Below are positions 18,637-36,405 of a stretch of 38,757 bases of DNA, piece after piece. The stretch spans positions 1 to 38,757 of IMG/VR virus record IMGVR_UViG_3300021373_001838. The stretch is one strand, 5' to 3'. How positions within the stretch are numbered: position 1 is the stretch's first letter; each line of letters begins with the position of its first letter. A model generated the notes under the pieces. It was not told the origin of the DNA. It was given only the letters and a program-made list of their open reading frames with translations, and did no database searches. A program made the position numbers and the translations under genes. This DNA is from a virus (Duplodnaviria; Caudoviricetes).

Positions 18637-20399
18637 ACTGGTGGTTCCTCACCCTCGATTGGTGTCTGGGCTTCCACTTGTAGGTCTTCTTGTGCTTGCT
18701 GTACGAAGCGTTGGGTCTCAACCTCCTCGAACACCTGAGCATTGTCACTGAATAAGTCAAAGCGTTGCAGCTGTAGGCTGTCCTCGATGAGCTTAGCCAG
18801 TGCTTTGTTAGACACATGCTTAGAGATACCAGCCCAGATGCCGCTGTTGGCTACGCCTGACAGGTTCTGTAGCAGCTGTGCTCTAGCACTGAAGTGTCTA
18901 GCACCAACAGGACGCAGCTTACCTTTAGCTGTGATGTCCTCTTTAGTGATCTTCATAAACTCTGTTACACCTAGATCATCGTCCATAATACGGACAACGT
19001 CTGCACCATTGAAGTGTCGCTTAGCTACCTCTAGCATATTGTTAAGCAGCTTCTCCAATAGCTCTATCTCGAACTGTGTGGTCTTCTCTTGGAAGATACG
19101 ACCTGCTGCATTCTCTAGGCTCTGCACCTCAAAGGCTGTCTTTTCGCCCGGAGTACGTATACCCATAGCTTGCTTAGGAGCACCCGCCATCTCTTCCATT
19201 AAGTTGAGGATGCGGTCTATCTCGAAGTTAGCAGAGAATGCCTGAGCTGCTGGAGCAAGAGGTTGTACATCCCCACCCTCTCCTACGTATATCTCTGAGA
19301 ACGGTGCCCACTCAAACTCATCTACATCCCCAATGATCTTAATAGGGGGTGCTAATATCATATCACCGATGTCAGCCTTGAGGTTCTCAAGATGGTCGAT
19401 GCGATACTGTAAGCCCACTAGGTTGTCCAGTGGCCCCATACCGTACAGGTTGTCTGGTCGCTTACGCCATGTAGTCATAACCTTGTAGCCGCCACGCTTC
19501 CACGCAGGGATAGGCTCTTTACGGATAACGCTGGTACGATCCATGATGGTGATGATGTAGTCGTCTAGCAACTCACCTGTGTTCTTGTCGTACATTGTTC
19601 CTTCAAACTCTAGCAGCTCTACGTAGCCACTGCCGAAGTATTCATACAGATCCCCGAAGCCATCTACGCTGAATGCTTGTGCTTTGTTGAAATCATCTGA
19701 GCTGTAGTAGCCATTGTGGTTGGCTCGTATCTCAGCTGATGCACGTACAGCATCCTGAAACTGCTTGTCTTCACTGTGCAACGCTTGCATCTCAATCTCA
19801 CCGAAGGTCTTAATGCTTCGTGTGATCTTAGGACTCTTAGCGAAGTCTGTAGCTAGTGGATCAAATACAATATCCTCTGGGCTAACACGTACAGCACGTG
19901 GGCCTACGTATCCAGCAATCACTTCCTCTGTCTCTGGGTCAGTCTTAGTCTCATCTACCCAGATGACATCAGCGATAGCAATGCCGTAGTCTATGTAGTC
20001 TAGCACTAGCTTGCTGGCTACAGTGCGTAGGTCGCTTTCACGTACCTTGTTGCTCATGTATGCTTGGATAGCTTTCTTCTTCTGTAGCTCCTCAGCGTCT
20101 AGTGTATACCCTTCCCACTTCATCCAGTCATCGTTAGGGAACAATGCACTGTTGTAATTGGCGTGTAGGTTGTCCCTGATCTGGCACAACTTAGGCAGCG
20201 TAGTCTTGTTCTTCCAAGGTAGGGAAGAGTTAGTAGTAGTAGCTGTATCTGTAGCGAACACATAGTTACGAATCTCCTGCTTCTCATCCAACCATGTACG
20301 TCTTTGATTGTTCCAGTTGTCCCACTGCTGTGTAATGTTAGCAGCCAGATCCTCTGGATCAAGTACGCCTTCTAGTTCTAATACGCGATCTTCAATCAT
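18633..20399 (-). CDS. Portal protein
   Basis: 588 aa after TerL; RPDNLYGMGPLDNL and GIRTPGEKTAFEV motifs. Confidence 0.9.
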   Translation of the reverse strand: MIEDRVLELEGVLDPEDLAANITQQWDNWNNQRRTWLDEKQEIRNYVFATDTATTTNSSLPWKNKTTLPKLCQIRDNLHANYNSALFPNDDWMKWEGYTLDAEELQKKKAIQAYMSNKVRESDLRTVASKLVLDYIDYGIAIADVIWVDETKTDPETEEVIAGYVGPRAVRVSPEDIVFDPLATDFAKSPKITRSIKTFGEIEMQALHSEDKQFQDAVRASAEIRANHNGYYSSDDFNKAQAFSVDGFGDLYEYFGSGYVELLEFEGTMYDKNTGELLDDYIITIMDRTSVIRKEPIPAWKRGGYKVMTTWRKRPDNLYGMGPLDNLVGLQYRIDHLENLKADIGDMILAPPIKIIGDVDEFEWAPFSEIYVGEGGDVQPLAPAAQAFSANFEIDRILNLMEEMAGAPKQAMGIRTPGEKTAFEVQSLENAAGRIFQEKTTQFEIELLEKLLNNMLEVAKRHFNGADVVRIMDDDLGVTEFMKITKEDITAKGKLRPVGARHFSARAQLLQNLSGVANSGIWAGISKHVSNKALAKLIEDSLQLQRFDLFSDNAQVFEEVETQRFVQQAQEDLQVEAQTPIEGEEPPV

Positions 20400-21925
20400 C
20401 TAAATGAAACCCCACCGAAACGTCCATCAAATTTAACCACATTACTTCTCTCTCTATTCAGCCCTGTACGTTGCTTAGGCTTCACACTTATTTCGATACA
20501 AGAGGCTAGACAGTCTTTTATATCATCGTGCTGTGGTCGTGCTAATAGTAATTCTTCTTCTAGTGCTGGGATGTACCCGCCCTTGTAGTGCCACACCGAG
20601 AGGTTCTCATAGCGTGGCTCTAATACAGCAGCCATCCTTTCAATCTTGCTACCTTGATGACGGTTAGGACGGTGGTCGTCTATCGACAAGCTGTCCCCGT
20701 TCTCCCGCACCTTATCCTTCAGATCCCCTACGATGATACTCTGTGCTGCTGTTACCTCAGCTCGCATCTTACGGAATCCCCATCTTGTGTGCATCTCACT
20801 GATCTTGTCGTAGTACACACTGATCTTGTCAGTCTTAAACCTATCTATGTCTAGAACGTAGATGTGTCCATCTGATGCCATACCGATCACTACGATAGCT
20901 GTGTAGTCAGCTCGTGCATTCATAGTGTATGCAAAGTCAATAGCTGCATAGACGTTTAACACACGTTCTTTATAGAACCATTTGCCACTCTGATTAGTTA
21001 GGTGGCGCTTGTCGTAGTATTGAAACCTTGAATGGTCTAAGCGATTAGACTCAGGATCATTAGGGTCGTTGTAATACTGTGCAAAGAACTGTGTACGGTC
21101 TGAATACATGGCACTGATACGTGCAAGCTCTCGCTTATCAAAGCCAAAAGTCTTACCGTCATCCCTTGATGCTCGTGGCCACAGGTACACCCCGTCTACT
21201 TCTACCACTTCCTCCATGATCTCCCATAGAGGCTCTTCTTCTAGTACCTCTCCAGCGTCATCGAACACTGGTATTACTTGTCCTTTCCAAATACTGTACT
21301 GGTCAGCTGCATGGTAACGTGTACCACATGCCTTAATCATCCCACCTGTATTCAGGATAGATGCCATCTGGCTCATAGCTGCTGCTGTCTTCCTACGTCC
21401 GTCTGCTGTGTAAGCATTGTCAGGAACAACAACGTCATCCGGTACAATGATGTCTGCGTGCCAACCAGTAGTGTTAGTGGTTAGGCCAGCAGTGCGTATA
21501 GTGTAGTCCCTTACGCCTTCTTCCTTCCTCGTCGGGTGATCTACGGCAATAGCAGTTGTAGCCCACTTCTCTCGCTTACCTTCTTCTGGGACTATCATCT
21601 CAGGCCAGTATCTCTGGTACACTGGTGAGGCTATCATGTTCTTTATTGCATAGAGCTGTGTCTCTGCTAGGTCAGCAGTTGCTGATAGGTACAGGATGGT
21701 AGTCTCAGGGTGCTTAGTCACCCACCATGCTGCCCATACAGCTAGACAATGGCTCTTCAAGTGTCCACGAGGCAGCAGCAACAGCTGATTAGGATGGTCT
21801 GTCTTCATCAACCACTTAAATACCACCCGATGTACGTCCCCGTACAGGTATTTAGGATTAACCAAGGCTGCAAACGTAGCTAAGTCCTGCTCAGCCAGCT
21901 CTCTGATCTCTTGTTTAGTGCTCAT
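20396..21925 (-). CDS. terL: Terminase large subunit
   Basis: PRGHLKS Walker A, TGWHADIIVPDD Walker B, GTRYH coupling motif, IDFA...DYTA and HDDIKD nuclease motifs. Confidence 0.95.
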   Translation of the reverse strand: MSTKQEIRELAEQDLATFAALVNPKYLYGDVHRVVFKWLMKTDHPNQLLLLPRGHLKSHCLAVWAAWWVTKHPETTILYLSATADLAETQLYAIKNMIASPVYQRYWPEMIVPEEGKREKWATTAIAVDHPTRKEEGVRDYTIRTAGLTTNTTGWHADIIVPDDVVVPDNAYTADGRRKTAAAMSQMASILNTGGMIKACGTRYHAADQYSIWKGQVIPVFDDAGEVLEEEPLWEIMEEVVEVDGVYLWPRASRDDGKTFGFDKRELARISAMYSDRTQFFAQYYNDPNDPESNRLDHSRFQYYDKRHLTNQSGKWFYKERVLNVYAAIDFAYTMNARADYTAIVVIGMASDGHIYVLDIDRFKTDKISVYYDKISEMHTRWGFRKMRAEVTAAQSIIVGDLKDKVRENGDSLSIDDHRPNRHQGSKIERMAAVLEPRYENLSVWHYKGGYIPALEEELLLARPQHDDIKDCLASCIEISVKPKQRTGLNRERSNVVKFDGRFGGVSFR

Positions 21926-22061
21926 CGTTTACCACCAAGCTGCCAAAGTCATAGCTTTCTATCTTCCCTGCCTCTTTCTCGGCCTCAGCAAGTATTGCTT
22001 TCTTCACAAACTCGTAAGGTAGGTCGGGATTATCTTCCATGATTTCTTTTTCAGTGGACAC
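21915..22061 (-). CDS. Mini-protein resembling the C-terminal half of ParD-like antitoxins (48 aa from GTG 22061, or 41 aa from ATG 22040); not in ORF track
   Basis: Translation MSTEKEIMEDNPDLPYEFVKKAILAEAEKEAGKIESYDFGSLVVNDEH; AGGA 6 nt before GTG; overlaps terS stop and terL start. Confidence 0.7.
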   Translation of the reverse strand: MSTEKEIMEDNPDLPYEFVKKAILAEAEKEAGKIESYDFGSLVVNDEH

Positions 22062-22560
22062 CACGTATCCTTGCTAGGTCATCGTCAATAGTTTGCTTAA
22101 TGTTAGCGTGTGCCTTACGTTCTCGCAACACTTCTTCCTTGGTAGGCCTACCTGCTGTACGCTTCTCTACCCAGCCTTTGTCAGCCAGCCACTTGGCAGC
22201 CTGTAGTGCCCCCTTACCTTCACTGTATGCTTCCATCATAACGCCTCTCACGCCCTGTGAGCGTAGCATTACCTCAAGCTCCTCTCTCCATGCGTTAATG
22301 TAGGGATGCAGACGAGTGGTGCTGTCGCATAGACGCTTCCAATGTGACCATCCACCTAGATGTTTAGTAGCAAACTCATATTCAGTAGGGTCTGCTGTCT
22401 CTAGGTAGAGGCGCTTGATGGAGATGTACGTCTTACCATTGTGCTCGTGGTCATCATCCTTCAATGTGAACACAGCGTTCTTAGGGTTTTCATAACAGAA
22501 CTCTAGGAATAAAGATTGTGTTAAGAAGTTACCTGTTACCTTGTCTCGAAATATACTCAT
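22051..22560 (-). CDS. Putative terminase small subunit
   Basis: Position upstream of terL; DPTEYEFA...GGWSHWKRL...W.EELE and AAKWLADKGW...GRPTKEE motifs. Confidence 0.7.
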   Translation of the reverse strand: MSIFRDKVTGNFLTQSLFLEFCYENPKNAVFTLKDDDHEHNGKTYISIKRLYLETADPTEYEFATKHLGGWSHWKRLCDSTTRLHPYINAWREELEVMLRSQGVRGVMMEAYSEGKGALQAAKWLADKGWVEKRTAGRPTKEEVLRERKAHANIKQTIDDDLARIRGVH

Positions 22561-24723
22561 TTAATATCCTATGGCTATGTATGTAAACTCATATGTGCCA
22601 GAAAAGCCCCCATCAGGGTCAACAGTGAACTGAGAAGTAGTTACAGGTGTAGCTTGAGAAACCGCTAAGACCGAGGTTGGGCCTTCATCTAGCCTAGTTA
22701 GCTGGATGCTGCCCACAGCTGTAGGAAAAGTCTCTGAGAATGTTACATTTAAAGGAGAAGATCCTGTGAATTGTACAGAACCCCACTGTACTAATAAAGG
22801 CCCGACATACGCATGTCCTTTTGCATAACCACCTGATGTAGCTGCTGGTGTTGTAAGAATGTCACCAGTTAAGCTGTCAGCTGTATCATTCACTACTACC
22901 TTAGTAACACCTGATCCGAACTTAGCCATTAACTCATACGTGCTGTCATTAGAGTAGAGCTGTGTTACATCTGTAACAGTAGATGGGTTAGATGCCGTTT
23001 CGTCTATCAAAACCCCACCCGCTTCTGGTGCAAGCAGCACACCAGACAGGTCGATAATACTGCCTGCTGTGTTGTATTCAAAGTCAACAGTGTTGCCAGA
23101 TGTTGTACCGCCATCTGTGTCTATAAAGCTACCTTCTATTGCGGAGAAACCTGTCACACAGTTTTTGACATCTGTACCTGCAGCAATTATTGTAGCTGAG
23201 CTTGCACTCCAAGCTCTTACACCGTACTGGTACCCGTCTACCTCAGCAGACCCTTTTATGACAGAGGACTCCAAGTAGTATCCTTCCGAAGAAAGAGTGT
23301 TATCGTGATATTTTGCAATAACATTTACATTCCCCTGCGCCCTTTGTCCCCAAAACACTCTTGCGTTAGTACAGTAAACACTTCCAAGAAACGTGCTATC
23401 AATAGCGAGAACGCCACGACCACCTCCTGCTATATAAACATTACCTGAAGCATAACAGTTCTCTCCTAAAGACAAGCCATCAAACTGACACCCTCCGGTT
23501 ACAACAGTCCCTAGTGCGAGCGTAGAAGCATCAGCAGTAACAGCACTTAGGTTCATATTTGCTACATACAGCAGTTCGGAGGTGAACACTGTGTTCTTAC
23601 CACAGACTATGCCGTAGAAAGGGCTGCTACCTACACTCACACCTGTCGTGTGGTTGTAATCACCAATGATTGCTATGTTGCCAAAAGTTATGTCTCCACC
23701 TTCTATGTAGAAGCAAGCATTCTTATCGCCAGATGCTGTGTAGCCATCATCAAACTGTAACTGTAAGCCTGTACGAACAACAGTCATGGATGTAACAGTC
23801 ATTGTAGGCCAAGCTGCTGCATCACTTGTGTTCTTTATGGTGATAGACACGTTCGGAACTATTGCTGTAATCTCCCAACAGCCTCGCATGTATTCGTAAT
23901 CACCAGTGCCTGCTACAGACCATATTGACACAAACTCCCCAACATTGAGGTTGGCTGTATCGTCAGAAGACATATCAACAGTTACTGACCAGTTCTTAGT
24001 AGCACCTACAGCACCTGTTATCAGGCTGCCTCCAGTCAATCCTTTATTCTCTGTAGCCCCAGTGCCTTGTATAGTAAGCTCACCAACAAGGGACTTGATA
24101 GAAACGCCCGTAAGCCCTGTGTACAAGCCTGTATCTATATCTATAACAGCAGCGTTACCTACGATGTGTGCATCCGCAAAAGAAGGCAAACCTGTTACAC
24201 GATAAGTCTTACCTGAACCAAACTCTACAGTCTTACCTGTAGCTAAAGCAGCGTTGATTGCGGCAAGATCATCCGTAGAGTTATCACCCGCAGCTCCGAA
24301 GTCTTCAGGGGATACAGTTTCTCTTAGCTTATCGCCAATAGTACGTCTTGTGCTGCTTGCTGCATTCTGATCGAAAGAGAGGACATCTCCGTCCCTAAGT
24401 ACAAAAGTGTTACCACTAGAGTCTACACTTAAAGCCTGATCGTCTGTGCCAGTGCTAGGTGTAGGCAATACAGTACCAGTAGTGGTAACACCTGCCAGTA
24501 CATCTGACAACCTAGCAGCGTCTGTACTCGAAGCAGGAGCTGGTAAGTTACGGATACGGTTGGAGTTCATATCCAACTCGTTCTGCATCTGATTCGGCTC
24601 ACCCTCAGGGTTATCCCGATACAACACCTTATTGTTTAGGTCGTCTTCTATCTTATCAAAGTTAGTGATAAGTTTAGTTACAGACTTAAAGCCTGAAACA
24701 ATACTGTCAAGTGTGATTTTCAT
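22561..24723 (-). CDS. Tail fibre / tailspike with beta-helix region
   Basis: N-terminal anchor LDMNSNRIRNLPAP, VSPEDFGAAGDNSTDDLAAINAALA beta-helix cap, C-terminal LLVQWG...VTFSETFPT domain. Confidence 0.85.
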   Translation of the reverse strand: MKITLDSIVSGFKSVTKLITNFDKIEDDLNNKVLYRDNPEGEPNQMQNELDMNSNRIRNLPAPASSTDAARLSDVLAGVTTTGTVLPTPSTGTDDQALSVDSSGNTFVLRDGDVLSFDQNAASSTRRTIGDKLRETVSPEDFGAAGDNSTDDLAAINAALATGKTVEFGSGKTYRVTGLPSFADAHIVGNAAVIDIDTGLYTGLTGVSIKSLVGELTIQGTGATENKGLTGGSLITGAVGATKNWSVTVDMSSDDTANLNVGEFVSIWSVAGTGDYEYMRGCWEITAIVPNVSITIKNTSDAAAWPTMTVTSMTVVRTGLQLQFDDGYTASGDKNACFYIEGGDITFGNIAIIGDYNHTTGVSVGSSPFYGIVCGKNTVFTSELLYVANMNLSAVTADASTLALGTVVTGGCQFDGLSLGENCYASGNVYIAGGGRGVLAIDSTFLGSVYCTNARVFWGQRAQGNVNVIAKYHDNTLSSEGYYLESSVIKGSAEVDGYQYGVRAWSASSATIIAAGTDVKNCVTGFSAIEGSFIDTDGGTTSGNTVDFEYNTAGSIIDLSGVLLAPEAGGVLIDETASNPSTVTDVTQLYSNDSTYELMAKFGSGVTKVVVNDTADSLTGDILTTPAATSGGYAKGHAYVGPLLVQWGSVQFTGSSPLNVTFSETFPTAVGSIQLTRLDEGPTSVLAVSQATPVTTSQFTVDPDGGFSGTYEFTYIAIGY

Positions 24724-25014: not shown

Positions 25015-26517
25015 CTAGTGTTTGATAATGTTGTGAGAGATGATGGACTGCTCTCCTGTGCCGCCTGTTAAGCCCCCTTGCCAAACTGCTTCTATTTCTA
25101 TCAACGAGCCTACTGCGTAAACATCTCCAGATGTATGGGCAATAGTCGCTCCTAAAACTGGCTCTGTCAGAGACAAAGTGCCACTAGCGTCTGTTGTGTC
25201 TTCTATTAAGGATATAGACCCTGTGGTCAAGTTATAAAGGGCTTTTCCGTTGTGCTGGTCATCCACCCAAGAAGATGCCGTATCTATCAGAAGGAGGCCA
25301 TCTGCGGTTGTAGTTGTGACAGTCCCTCCTTCCCCGTTTGTAACCATAGCTGTAAGACAACCAAGCTCTGTTCCTGCGCCCAACTGAAAGATTACAAAAT
25401 TAGGTCGAATATTAGGTTCAGATATTTGACTTTTAGTCGCTGCCTGTAAATCAGAAGCGCTTAGGGTTCTTGTTGTAGCTCCATCCACCTTAAAAGAAAG
25501 GCTTATGCTGTCAGGCCAGTCGTTTATACTGTCATCAGCTATAAGAGCGCTTCTGTCTGTATCAATAACTATGTAAGGAACATCGTTTTTTAAATCTCTG
25601 TCCCCAAACCCTACAATACATAAGTCCTCTGTTGCCCCATCTGAGTTAACTAGTATTAAATCTAAACCATAAGAAGATAAAGCACCCTCATAATTAAAGC
25701 CTACAAACATAGATGCCTGACCAGTCACTACGTTACCGCTTGCGTCAAAAGCTCCATCATTAAAACCTATAATACTTTTGTGTTTTACCGTTGCATTTCC
25801 TGCCATTGTGCTCACCCATTCGTAAAAATTATACTCTCTTTGATCCGCAAAAAGAATGCCAGCCCTCTCGTAGTGGTTGCTTCCGTCTATAGGCTGCCCG
25901 CTTAGATCAATATAGACCCTGTTTTTATTTTCTAAGGCAAACTTTTTCAGACCGTCTGTTACATTAGTGTAGCCGCTTTCAGTTCTTGCGGCTGGCTGCA
26001 AAAGAGCAAAAGGAATGTTATCGTTTAACTCTGGTATGTCAGCCTTCATCTGCTGCCAGTAGTAACTGAGGTCTGTGTAGTACGTAGTAGAACCCTCTAC
26101 TGAGTCTTTCTCCCCATGCCAAAAGCTAATAAGAACAATCCTGTTACCACTGTCTGTTGCTATTGCAGTGTTAATTGTATCTTTTGCCAATTCGTAATTA
26201 GAGTTATTAGGGTACAAAGTCCCAACTCCATCCTGAAAACCAGAACCACCAAAGGCGGCACACACAAACAGCAGCTTTCTACCAGCCTCAAGGTTGTTGG
26301 CTTCGTAGTTTTCCGCAAATACTTTCCACTTACCCATTGATGTTGGCAAAGCTGCTACATGCTCAAGGGGGTGCGTAGCAGCTTTTATGGACTGCGTTTG
26401 GTAGGAGAATTGGTAAGTGTTGGGTATTGCCGAGTAGTCCTCATCATCTACCAATCTTGTTGCTCTGCCCTTATTGTTGCTCTGGCCTATCAACAAAACA
26501 ATATCATAATTTGACAT
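25015..26517 (-). CDS. SGNH-fold carbohydrate esterase (sialate O-acetylesterase/SASA-like) with C-terminal extension
   Basis: LLIGQSN catalytic Ser motif, AFGGSG, FWHGEKD, DGSNHY. Confidence 0.8.
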   Translation of the reverse strand: MSNYDIVLLIGQSNNKGRATRLVDDEDYSAIPNTYQFSYQTQSIKAATHPLEHVAALPTSMGKWKVFAENYEANNLEAGRKLLFVCAAFGGSGFQDGVGTLYPNNSNYELAKDTINTAIATDSGNRIVLISFWHGEKDSVEGSTTYYTDLSYYWQQMKADIPELNDNIPFALLQPAARTESGYTNVTDGLKKFALENKNRVYIDLSGQPIDGSNHYERAGILFADQREYNFYEWVSTMAGNATVKHKSIIGFNDGAFDASGNVVTGQASMFVGFNYEGALSSYGLDLILVNSDGATEDLCIVGFGDRDLKNDVPYIVIDTDRSALIADDSINDWPDSISLSFKVDGATTRTLSASDLQAATKSQISEPNIRPNFVIFQLGAGTELGCLTAMVTNGEGGTVTTTTADGLLLIDTASSWVDDQHNGKALYNLTTGSISLIEDTTDASGTLSLTEPVLGATIAHTSGDVYAVGSLIEIEAVWQGGLTGGTGEQSIISHNIIKH

Positions 26518-26967: not shown

Positions 26968-29388
26968 TTATCGACGCTTCTTCTTGTCATCCCACTTCAT
27001 TTTAACCTTCTTCTTAGGAGCAGCTGCTGGGAGACCCTGACCTGATCCATTGAACAAGAGGTTGTCTGTAGTGGCTGTCAACTGGACAACAGTTTCCTGC
27101 AAGTTCGGTACGCTATCCTCTGCTACGATGTAGTAGTCGTATGTGGTGTTCTTAGCACCAGAGCTGAATATAAAAGAACACGACTGTCCAGCCACTGCTG
27201 CTACACTCTTAGCCTCTGGCGCTGCTGCTCCTAGTGAGTCAGTACCTGCCTTGACTTGAAAAGGCTCAGGGTAGCCTGACCCTTCTGGCAACCTAACACC
27301 GTACACAGTCCCGTTCTCGTTAATTGTTTGACGGATAGTGTGGCCTGAGATTGTTGTCTTAGCTTTATCAGGAGCAGCTGTGAATACAGGAGGCTCGTTG
27401 TCGGTAGATGATGTGTTATTAACTACAGCATCTGTAAACGTAGCAAGCTCTATACCCGTTGTGCCATCTGTGAATGTACCACCTGCCTGCGTGAAGCTAA
27501 GCGACAATACATCGTTATACTCAACAGCTGGGCTTACTGTAAAGACCCCAGTGTTAGCAGGGATAGCTGCGTTAGTGAATGTATACACCCCGCCTAGTGT
27601 ACCTGTCAATGTAAAAGGAGAGTGTGCAGGGGTTGTCTGGTTTGCAAGACTAGCTGATGAGAACACAACCGTCAATAGCGTACCTGTTTCATCTACTGTA
27701 GGATCACCCACCACTACAGGAGCTGTCGCTGTAGATTGGCTAGACACTAGAGCATCAGAGAAAGCCTCTACGTCTGTACCACCAACCGTTGCCTCTATTA
27801 CGTTAGCTCCACCTGCAAAGTTTAGAATCTCTCCACCACCACCTGCTTGTGCATATGGAGATATTGTGTAAACGATTGTGTCTGTAGTAGAACCGCTAGA
27901 GTAGGTGAGAGTTTCGCCTGTACTGAGCGTCAACCCTGTGGCTGCTGATGTTGTAACAGCTTCGCTAAATGTCAACGTCAAAGTGCTACCTGTAGAGTCG
28001 ATAACAGGTAGGTTAGGATTCATGGCTCCTTGTTCAAGAGTAGGTGCCGTTAGGGACTGTGTAGTGAATTGTGCTGACGTAGCTATGTTTGATTCGCTTG
28101 AATCTGCGCTTACATGTAAGAAATGAATGTAGTATGACGTAGCAGGAGACAAACCTGTAGCCGACACAATCTGACTACCTGTAGCTGATACAGCCTGTGT
28201 ATCACCAGCAGATGTAGCGTCTGATATGAATGTTGCATTAGGCGATGTAGGTGTAGCGCTTGCTGCTACTTCCCAGTACAGCGTACCGTCACTTTTATCC
28301 GTAGTGACAGTGCCTGTAGCTGTTGTGTTGCCTGTCGGAGTACCGATAGGGCTGGTCAGTGTTGGCGACCCCCCTGTTGTGCTTGTTGGGAAAACATCTG
28401 TTGATGCTATGTATTTATTACCAGAAGCATCTGTTCCCAGATCCGCTTCATTAGTGTGAACTACAACACTGTCTATGTTTAATGCTTGATCCTGATAAGG
28501 CTCCGTTCCTCTGGTTGAAGGCCACTGGCTAGTGTCTTTACCACCGTTCCAATAGGTGAAAAGGTACATAGATGTCACGGTATCAGTAGCACTGTTAAGT
28601 GTTCTAAAATCACCATTGGCTGTAGTTGCACTAAAGTTAGCTGTCTGCCACCCGCTGTCGTACCACCTCGCCGTTATCGTGCCGTTAGTCTCTCCTATTT
28701 GTTCGTAGGCTAGTTCATCATTGACCCAAAGTCTTTTTCTAAGCTCTGACGAGACATCACTGAGGTAGGCCGAGAATGCAATAAAATTCCACTGGCCTCT
28801 TATTAAAACTCTCGATGAATCGCGTAGGGTATCTGATTGCTGAGAAGTCTGGAAACGCTCATCTTGTAAGTTCCAACCTGTCTGTGAACCATCGCCGCCT
28901 GCTGGTGAACCAACCTGAACTTCCATCAGTTGTCCGCTATTCACACTGCGGTTAAAACGAAGCGTCTTTAAAAAACCGGGTGCTGCTCTGAAATCAAAAT
29001 CCGCAGGGACATACATCCACACCCCAGCGTGCATTGTTTTCCCTTTGTCCAAAGGTGTATCAAAGGTGAGTATACCACCAAACTGCCCTGATGTCGGTCT
29101 GGCCACAGGGTCAGTCCAAGGTGCAAATTGCAACCCTAATCCATCCCAACCTTGTGCTATAGCTAGGCGAGCAGAGCTGTCTCTTAGCCCGCCACGGGTG
29201 ATGCCTGTATCGCCCTCTGTTCCGTAACCCGCTAAGTCACCCCTACCCTTCTCACCCCACGAGGTAAACCTTTTAGCCGCAGGGGTAATAGGGTCTTGTA
29301 TATCTGTGGAGCCTGAGTAACTGCCAATGTTCTGCCCGTCTGTTAAGCCAGAAAAGTCTTTGTCTAGTGTATCCCAGTTAATCGCCAT
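26968..29388 (-). CDS. Multidomain putative virion protein: polysaccharide-lyase/ConA-like domain plus Fn3/Ig-like repeats
   Basis: WMYVPADFDF...RGQW...RLWVND...YWNGG...IDSVVV jelly-roll pattern; ATGLSPATSYYIHF and NTTYDYYIVAED Fn3-like motifs; TLTLTFSEAV Ig-like motif. Confidence 0.6.
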   Translation of the reverse strand: MAINWDTLDKDFSGLTDGQNIGSYSGSTDIQDPITPAAKRFTSWGEKGRGDLAGYGTEGDTGITRGGLRDSSARLAIAQGWDGLGLQFAPWTDPVARPTSGQFGGILTFDTPLDKGKTMHAGVWMYVPADFDFRAAPGFLKTLRFNRSVNSGQLMEVQVGSPAGGDGSQTGWNLQDERFQTSQQSDTLRDSSRVLIRGQWNFIAFSAYLSDVSSELRKRLWVNDELAYEQIGETNGTITARWYDSGWQTANFSATTANGDFRTLNSATDTVTSMYLFTYWNGGKDTSQWPSTRGTEPYQDQALNIDSVVVHTNEADLGTDASGNKYIASTDVFPTSTTGGSPTLTSPIGTPTGNTTATGTVTTDKSDGTLYWEVAASATPTSPNATFISDATSAGDTQAVSATGSQIVSATGLSPATSYYIHFLHVSADSSESNIATSAQFTTQSLTAPTLEQGAMNPNLPVIDSTGSTLTLTFSEAVTTSAATGLTLSTGETLTYSSGSTTDTIVYTISPYAQAGGGGEILNFAGGANVIEATVGGTDVEAFSDALVSSQSTATAPVVVGDPTVDETGTLLTVVFSSASLANQTTPAHSPFTLTGTLGGVYTFTNAAIPANTGVFTVSPAVEYNDVLSLSFTQAGGTFTDGTTGIELATFTDAVVNNTSSTDNEPPVFTAAPDKAKTTISGHTIRQTINENGTVYGVRLPEGSGYPEPFQVKAGTDSLGAAAPEAKSVAAVAGQSCSFIFSSGAKNTTYDYYIVAEDSVPNLQETVVQLTATTDNLLFNGSGQGLPAAAPKKKVKMKWDDKKKRR

Positions 29389-34413: not shown

Positions 34414-34709
34414 AACACGATCAAGAAGTGTACGACAAGGCACGTGATGAAATGCTGGCAGACATGCTAGATTATATATCCGAAGGCTTACTGGCTGAGG
34501 TGTTAGCAGATGAATGGGTGTTAAGCAAGCACCCCGTGGCTTTCGCAGCGGCCCTTCATAACGCCCTGTGTGATTGTCTGGAGGACAGTACAGTAGAGCA
34601 GTACATACGGTATGGTATGGACATCGAAACGCCTGAGGAGACACGAGAGAGACTAGAGGGAGATAGATTGGACGCACTAAGAAAGGAGGGCATTGCTAAT
34701 GGTAACTAA
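34410..34709 (+). CDS. Acidic hypothetical protein (99 aa)
   Basis: GGAGG RBS; ATGA overlap. Confidence 0.75.
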   Translation: MKHDQEVYDKARDEMLADMLDYISEGLLAEVLADEWVLSKHPVAFAAALHNALCDCLEDSTVEQYIRYGMDIETPEETRERLEGDRLDALRKEGIANGN

Positions 34710-34875
34710 AGAAGAAGTAGAGAGAGCTAAGGCTGCTGCTGTTGCTGCTTATGATGCTGCTGTTGCTGCTTATGATGCTGCTGATGCTGCTTATGATGCT
34801 GATACTGTTGAGGCTGCTGATGCTGCTTTTGATAAATACCGTAAACTGAAAGAGGCATTCGAAAATGGTAACTAA
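34699..34875 (+). CDS. Ala-rich tandem paralogue 1 (MVTKEEVERAKA...FDKYRKLKEAFENGN)
   Basis: GGAGG RBS; termini shared with paralogues 2-4. Confidence 0.8.
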   Translation: MVTKEEVERAKAAAVAAYDAAVAAYDAADAAYDADTVEAADAAFDKYRKLKEAFENGN

Positions 34876-35029
34876 AGAACAAGTAGAGAAGGCTAAGGCT
34901 ATTTATGCTAAAGCTGCTGATGCTGATACTATTGCTGCTGCTGCTACTATTGAAGCTGCTATTGCAGCTGCTGACGAGGCTTGGGATAAATATCTTAAAC
35001 TAAAACAAGAGTTTGAAAATGGTAACTAA
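34865..35029 (+). CDS. Ala-rich tandem paralogue 2 (MVTKEQVEKAKA...WDKYLKLKQEFENGN), not in ORF track
   Basis: Manual translation, 54 aa; GAGG RBS. Confidence 0.8.
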   Translation: MVTKEQVEKAKAIYAKAADADTIAAAATIEAAIAAADEAWDKYLKLKQEFENGN

Positions 35030-35219
35030 AGAAGAAGTTGAGAAGGCTAAGGCTGCTGCTAAAGCTGCTGAAGCTGTTTATGAGGCTGCTACTTTTGCTG
35101 TTGATGCTATTTATGCTAAGGCTAAGGCTAAGGCTGCTGCTTTGGATAAGGCTGCTGACAAGGCTTTTGATAAATACGTTAAACTGTATCGGGAGTATGA
35201 CAATGAAAAGGGTAACTAA
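35019..35219 (+). CDS. Ala-rich tandem paralogue 3 (MVTKEEVEKAKA...FDKYVKLYREYDNEKGN)
   Basis: Same junction and termini as paralogues 1-2. Confidence 0.8.
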   Translation: MVTKEEVEKAKAAAKAAEAVYEAATFAVDAIYAKAKAKAAALDKAADKAFDKYVKLYREYDNEKGN

Positions 35220-35355
35220 AGAAGACGTTGATAAGGCTGAAGCTGAATGGCACACTGCTTTTGATGATGATGATGTTGAGAAGGCTGATGCTCGTGCGGC
35301 TTGGGATGAATACGTTAAACTCTGGCAGGAGTTTGAAGATGGAAGTGGAGAGTGA
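35203..35355 (+). CDS. Tandem paralogue 4 (MKRVTKEDVDKAEA...WDEYVKLWQEFEDGSGE)
   Basis: GGAG RBS; homologous termini. Confidence 0.75.
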   Translation: MKRVTKEDVDKAEAEWHTAFDDDDVEKADARAAWDEYVKLWQEFEDGSGE

Positions 35356-35844: not shown

Positions 35845-36405
35845 ATGAAGACGGACAACAACGGTAAGGTAATTGATTTTAGAGACTATGAAGGTAAGGT
35901 AATGAATCTCACTTACGACTATGCCACTACCAAAGAGTATGAACTAGATCATAGTGTAGAGTTTGATGATGTACATCAAGAGGTTATGATTAGTTTCTTC
36001 AATGCAGTTGAGCAGTACGATAGCAGTAAGGGTAGCTTCCCTAGTTTCTTCGAGCTAGTAGCTAACAACCATATGAAGAAGTTTCTAAGATCAATCAGAG
36101 CTAGATACACAGAGAGTTATGATGTACCGATAGAGGAAGCAGTGTTTGAACTAGCACCTGATACGATAGACAACCTAGAAAGAGAGGAAGCAATCAAGAG
36201 TGCTGTATTTAGCACACTATCAGAGAGGGATGGTAATATACTGCTAGAATACTTTGGGGTTGGTGTGCTAGGCGATAAGGGTTTGACACAGCAAGAGTTA
36301 GCACCCAAGTATAAGCTATCAAGAGAGGGCGTAACTAAGGTGATACAGAAAGCGTTAGCTAACCCTGAACTCAAAGCAATACTTCAATCATCGTTCACCA
36401 GTTAG
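35845..36405 (+). CDS. Phage-encoded sigma-70-family RNA polymerase sigma factor
   Basis: Region 2-like DDVHQEVMISFFNAVEQYDSSKGSFPSF...NHMKKFLR; region 4 HTH LSERDGNILLEYFG...LTQQELAPKYKLSREGVTKVIQKAL. Confidence 0.85.
   Translation: MKTDNNGKVIDFRDYEGKVMNLTYDYATTKEYELDHSVEFDDVHQEVMISFFNAVEQYDSSKGSFPSFFELVANNHMKKFLRSIRARYTESYDVPIEEAVFELAPDTIDNLEREEAIKSAVFSTLSERDGNILLEYFGVGVLGDKGLTQQELAPKYKLSREGVTKVIQKALANPELKAILQSSFTS

Follow-up and report, generated by a model that had tools for sequence, protein, structure and literature searches.

A host-derived PF11903 antitoxin fragment as a candidate toxin-binding mini-gene at the putative terS-terL junction of a Zobellviridae-like marine phage

Phages have acquired several proteins that act against the toxins of host toxin-antitoxin (TA) systems. 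The T4 protein Dmd reportedly neutralises a host TA toxin. Neutralisation of a host TA toxin by a phage protein is also described for AdfB/Gp145 of ICP1 (PMC11481870) and TifA of T4 (PMC13728456), and proceeds by binding where the mode of action is shown. In T-even phages, the orphan DarG1-like NADAR protein AdfN is described as an enzyme removing ADP-ribose from DNA (PMC11825919), while the lytic aquatic cyanophage S-CREM1 encodes the type II antitoxin-like proteins YefM, TacA and MazE, for which a role in counter-defence was proposed (PMC9964418). Type II antitoxins are considered hard to spot as orphans (PMC11825919). That a short antitoxin peptide can suffice in this superfamily has precedents in the structure of RelE with residues 47-79 of RelB (PDB 2kc8) and in residues 3-22 of VcHigA2, which neutralise HigB2 (PMC5416850). 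The PF15781 toxins, the partners of the bacterial PF11903 antitoxins, are listed in a superfamily review with unknown activity, and their clustering points to mRNA cleavage (PMC11980606).

The DNA considered here, referred to as the window, is a stretch of 38,757 nucleotides of an IMG/VR virus record. Its terminase large subunit gene (terL, 509 aa; 20396..21925, minus strand) encodes a protein with 65% identity to that of Vibrio phage ICP2 (Zobellviridae) and 57% to that of CW02, and the PHROG types of the window match the Zobellviridae kind. This comparison, which covered terL, portal, capsid, primase-helicase and RNR and was made by terL identity and PHROG types, is compatible with a Zobellviridae-like marine phage as the source. 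Elsewhere in the window, four tandem small Ala-rich paralogous ORFs (34693-35355, plus strand), which share a VTKE start and overlap head to tail, suggest that a gene of the early region was locally amplified. A sigma-factor-like protein (PHROG 351, E 3e-12) is encoded at 35845-36405 (plus strand), and two ORFs of 500 and 806 aa (25015-26517 and 26968-29388, minus strand), which have no PHROG match, lie upstream of the tail-fibre gene.

A conserved gene of 169 aa (22051..22560, minus strand) precedes terL, and an earlier note on this DNA had proposed that a hidden ORF with a ribosome-binding site lies between the two and overlaps both. Such an ORF is present. A mini-gene of 48 aa (21915..22061, minus strand) runs from GTG at 22061 to TAA at 21915, shares 11 nt with the 169-aa gene (22061-22051) and a further 11 nt with terL (21925-21915), and is preceded by a Shine-Dalgarno-like (SD-like) AAGGA (22068..22072, minus strand) located 6 nt before the GTG, within the upstream gene. 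The name terS, which the note had given to this upstream gene, is a label by position alone: the gene matches PHROG 8035 (unknown function), Atlas returns unnamed viral clusters and an HTH family is a weak lead. The mini-gene is composed of 7 codons of the old terL (22041..22061, minus strand), which include the ancestral terL start, a core derived from a host antitoxin (residues 6-40; 21942..22046, minus strand) and a new tail of 8 residues, with Glu-Ile (E-I) common to the first two parts. The proposed peptide is thus real as an ORF, but its first 7 residues are the old terL N-terminus and are not host-derived. Because of this origin, GTG 22061 is the likely start; a second in-frame GTG is found one codon upstream, at 22064. 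Positions 21700-23000 were scanned for promoters and terminators; no terminator emerged, and the single promoter-like site is fewer than the 1.6 expected.

The note had recognised the peptide as the C-terminal half of a ParD-like antitoxin, and a homologue search confirmed this similarity, with 130 of 130 candidates at E <= 0.01. After three clusters of 48-aa phage peptides, the best homologues are 73-aa PF11903 proteins, which share 83-91% of 35 residues with it and reach an E value of 1.9e-12, and peptide residues 6-40 align to the final 35 residues of these proteins (residues 39-73). As the note had stated, the similarity stops at YDFG, which is also where the host protein ends. Pfam on its own did not reach the same answer, since the 48-aa peptide matched PF11903 with 12.9 bits (E 0.11) over model positions 39-65 only, under the curated cut-off of 23 bits, whereas full-length host proteins reach 60-61 bits; an assignment by Pfam alone was discarded. 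The peptide also matches PHROG 16013 (E 5.6e-7). Host residues 1-38, which form most of the ribbon-helix-helix (RHH), are absent from it, and no toxin gene lies beside the mini-gene, whose neighbours are the 169-aa gene and terL. It therefore departs from PF11903 members on three points (cut-off, RHH and adjacent toxin) and joins them by homology to their C-terminal half, the homologue search making the PF11903 origin of the core clear. Among 33 longer homologues, all PF11903-annotated and two of them viewed in full, no fused form was evident. Cultured phage records contained no match to the peptide, to its DNA or to the full-length host antitoxin, and a PDB sequence search with the antitoxin gave two chance rows and no relative.

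A profile of 125 toxins revealed no PF15781 toxin in the 38,757-base contig, where its best match had an E value of 6.8, in agreement with the claim that the window lacks a toxin gene, and gave no match in five carrier records that are 9-21% complete. This absence is limited to the contig because the 38.8-kb record is linear, shorter than its 45-50-kb cultured relatives, and may be incomplete. In host genomes, 189 loci with a full core match were collected (some contigs counted twice), of which 178 hold a full-length antitoxin, followed in 157 of the 178 by an overlapping downstream ORF of 85-115 aa. At the one locus where it was scanned, this ORF is a PF15781 ParE-like toxin (E 2e-37), and the top Foldseek rows of the toxin model (pLDDT 75) are HigB2, RelE and YoeB toxins, at E values of at least 1.9e-3 with none below 0.001; the host neighbour, with its RelE-fold model, is thus of the ParE/RelE type expected for the partner. 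The PDB held no relative of the PF15781 toxin in a sequence search, so that by sequence the PF11903/PF15781 pair is without a solved structure.

The model of the host antitoxin (pLDDT 89) contains helices at residues 10-22, 27-43 and 49-63. Its first 48 residues, with the first two helices, match RHH proteins weakly but repeatedly (Z 3.3-4.4), and the missing N-terminal half is predicted to be an RHH domain, as had been anticipated. From the helix positions in this model, the part retained by the phage would begin near the end of the second RHH helix and include the third helix and the tail. Most named genomes with donor-like genes belong to marine Gammaproteobacteria and a few to Desulfuromonadia. 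Among the fetched loci, the host DNA closest to the core is 82% identical to it, with pS of at least 0.56, suggesting that either the exact donor is unsampled or the fragment was acquired some time ago.

The 48-aa peptide, aligned with host C-terminal halves, was folded by ESMFold2 with the toxin of host locus L091, whose own antitoxin is 89% identical to the phage core. The predicted complex reached an ipSAE of 0.62, against 0.32 for the best of three controls, the runs agreeing in at least 84% of contacts with a partner pLDDT of at least 71. The mark used for ipSAE is reached by 116 of 157 solved pairs and 2 of 215 mismatched pairs, rates that are only rough for our own alignments, and the likeness to RelB/RelE-type complexes, which are common, may help the score. 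Confident contacts are confined to peptide residues 6-40, placing the whole predicted toxin interface inside the core (21942..22046, minus strand), which is consistent with the proposal that the phage retained the toxin-binding half. In the prediction, peptide residues 34-37 lie on the first strand of the toxin, residues 18-28 touch toxin residues 65-67 and 79-81, and the toxin face of the interface extends to the invariant His85. Close cousins of a true partner pass such a test as well, and the model is best read as the C-terminal half of the family fitting the toxin, not as binding of the phage peptide in the cell.

Comparison with relatives makes the history of the locus legible. Relatives without the ORF have an otherwise identical junction: in L027, L029 and L033, terL starts with the same GTG at which the mini-gene starts and overlaps terS by 11 nt. 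The AAGGA motif is found in these empty-site relatives too, where it would serve terL, and records P0124 and P0142 begin with the exact ancestral terL N-terminus. The insert amounts to 136 nt. Its first 15 nt resemble the 5′ end of terL and are followed by the host core (105 nt) and a tail of 16 nt (21926..21941, minus strand); 6 nt ahead of the new ATG of terL, this tail contains an SD-like GGTGG, which reads GGTGA in L004. The Glu-Ile codons common to terL and the host gene constitute a microhomology and mark the likely crossover. Across the 83 terL loci examined, the insert is present in 6 and absent from 77; at the nine loci with a terL at least 90% identical, six carry it and in three terS and terL overlap directly by 11 nt, as terS and terL of ICP2 also overlap directly. 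A DNA-pattern scan of viral contigs returned the same four carriers and two chance matches. A contig from RNA run X15 that covers the insert was set aside as expression evidence, since contigs cannot show transcription. It is also worth mentioning that L027 combines a window-like terS (94% identical in DNA) with an L002-like terL (96%) and has no insert; judged from such sequences, the terS-terL region is a recombination mosaic.

The mini-gene is probably a minimal captured antitoxin, produced by coupling with the packaging genes, which binds free PF15781 toxin and protects late translation. Recombination at the Glu-Ile microhomology would have placed the host fragment behind a terL start already coupled to the upstream gene, the 136-nt insert taking over the ancestral terL start and first codons, while the SD-like site of the tail and a new ATG would have restored terL. 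The mini-protein would then be translated together with the packaging genes through translational coupling and, according to the model, would bind the first strand of the toxin and the region up to His85. Lacking the RHH, it would neither dimerise nor bind and repress the host operator. Decay of the host antitoxin during infection would free a toxin that probably cuts mRNA, and the mini-protein would mop it up. Among the observations that count against this reading, one carrier contig was binned with Flavobacteriaceae, unlike the mostly gammaproteobacterial donor-like genes, and defence-system domains are rare around the host loci (see below). The interpretation of the earlier note, of which this is an extension, is supported, each computational check that it had proposed being favourable except for Pfam alone.

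An alternative, which we consider unlikely, is that the insert is a relic, i.e., an open frame captured by chance, useful for passing ribosomes on from terS to the relocated terL start or for shifting the terS:terL ratio, with amino acids that are irrelevant. The two overlaps of exactly 11 nt and the new SD-like site for terL imply that coupling is needed whatever the peptide does, and the empty-site relatives persist, even in the same sample, where run X11 holds the empty allele (loose end at 22053) besides the insert. However, a pure coupler needs no conservation of its amino acids, and the 35-codon core of six carriers shows 10 changes at 22 synonymous sites but 7 at 83 replacement sites, a synonymous excess (binomial p 0.0007, and 0.009 if a transition bias of 6 is assumed) that was obtained from 17 changes among related carriers with one tie scored against the hypothesis. 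Similarly, pN of the core between the two main lineages is 0.02-0.04, against 0.15 for terS and 0.085 for terL. One lineage carries the non-conservative changes E30K, A31E and L24F, in keeping with a relic; Ala31 is otherwise invariant, and neither position 30 nor position 31 belongs to the predicted interface. The distribution of variable positions (5 of 23 in the interface and 4 of 12 elsewhere) is uninformative on the interface, as is, on 35 codons, the GC3 of the core (0.49, against 0.42-0.49 in phage genes). Between lineages, the insert is more similar (91-94%) than terS and terL are (80-82%). This was considered as a sign of a sweep and rejected, since terS itself has patches of 97-100%; in a recombination mosaic, such identity does not prove that a sweep took place.

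A second capture, in another gene and another phage group and away from the terminase, also argues against a relic. In the IMG/VR contig L005 (4745-4996, plus strand), host residues of about 35-70 lie in frame inside a small CxxC...CxxC zinc-finger-like gene, and the fragment is absent from seven of seven other loci with this gene (L248-L254). Alignment of six of these empty loci with L005 revealed a 9-nt microhomology at the right junction. The net gain is 117 nt, and the fragment has 88% DNA identity to the best hosts. The fusion, a protein of 83 aa, is not a single chimera because six protein records (P0197, P0296-P0298, P0198 and P0300), on 44 contig entries, carry it. None of five records of its relatives matched the window terL, and one 35-kb relative has a different terminase type, a DNA polymerase I and an RNR nearest to those of Roseobacter/Lentibacter podophages. 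On these sequences, two separate phage groups kept nearly the same antitoxin half in independent captures, which is the strongest argument against chance retention, the L005 carrier contig itself being only 7.5 kb long.

Many other proteins of 45-80 aa lack the RHH part and have N-termini unrelated to one another, yet end in this C-terminal module (P0191, P0203, P0212, P0216, P0218, P0222-P0227, P0237, P0249, P0251, P0252, P0254, P0257, P0258, P0264, P0268, P0273, P0278, P0291, P0292 and P0294). Additional captures, antitoxins that act alone and broken genes may all be among them; one such module, used as a query, had no match in viral contigs.

A further explanation, less likely still than a relic, accepts that the peptide binds the toxin and places the benefit elsewhere: a stressed or starved host could keep translating, or the toxin could be titrated off the operator complex, altering TA expression. 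The predicted binding fits this equally well. In addition, the literature search found no paper showing anti-phage defence by the PF11903/PF15781 pair, and the host loci resemble general mobile TA clusters, with other TA modules and transposases in their neighbourhood and a defence-system domain among the nearest ORFs in 2 of 41 loci (JetD and ThsB). On the other hand, the phage orphan antitoxins with a tested role are described as countering TA defence (PMC11825919, PMC11481870), as proposed for the captured antitoxin. Finally, the window is a metagenomic virus record, yet an assembly chimera of phage and host DNA is so improbable that it can be set aside, since four runs, each from a different study, yielded single contigs that cross the insert, whole or nearly so, without indels, the best host match among the fetched loci is only 82% in DNA, and the protein collection holds, with redundancy, 25 carrier records, 21 of them distinct variants, on 109 contig entries.

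On a broader scale, we tentatively suggest that lytic marine phages might repeatedly graft the toxin-binding halves of type II antitoxins onto their own starts or small genes as counter-defence peptides. In that case, the two captures would suggest that marine Gammaproteobacteria use PF11903/PF15781 as an anti-phage system that has so far escaped notice, and looking for short host-like inserts in phage genes could be a general route to such systems. Annotation would miss a gene such as this one, with its 48 aa, its overlaps on both sides and a Pfam score under the cut-off, and none of the literature titles and abstracts searched (few subscription journals, supplements excluded) reports the mini-gene or a truncated PF11903 antitoxin in a phage. 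The mini-gene also offers a cheap test of anti-phage action by a common, uncharacterised TA family.

Compared with the bacterial PF11903/PF15781 type II systems, the mini-protein shares 35 residues, as many as 91% of them identical, and the prediction has it bind the same toxin, but it lacks residues 1-38, has no toxin nearby or in the contig, and resides in a packaging operon with a phage-derived N-terminus. We know of no homology between AdfB/Gp145, TifA or Dmd and a host antitoxin, whereas the mini-protein is a piece of a host gene. The S-CREM1 antitoxins resemble it as type II antitoxin-like proteins of a lytic aquatic phage; unlike the mini-protein, they were reported without homology to the host's own copies, and the parts of that report that describe them give no evidence of truncation, junction, selection or binding (PMC9964418). 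A further parallel is AdfN, described as a homologue of a host antitoxin that lacks an N-terminal part and was co-opted more than once (PMC11825919). AdfN is an enzyme, however; the mini-protein has no enzymatic nature, derives from a type II antitoxin of which it is a fragment, scarcely differs from the host copies and shows visible capture junctions. The origin of phage anti-TA proteins is usually untraceable; here, the birth of one can be read from an empty allele, a donor family, a microhomology junction, a start codon put to new use and the parallel event in an unrelated phage group.
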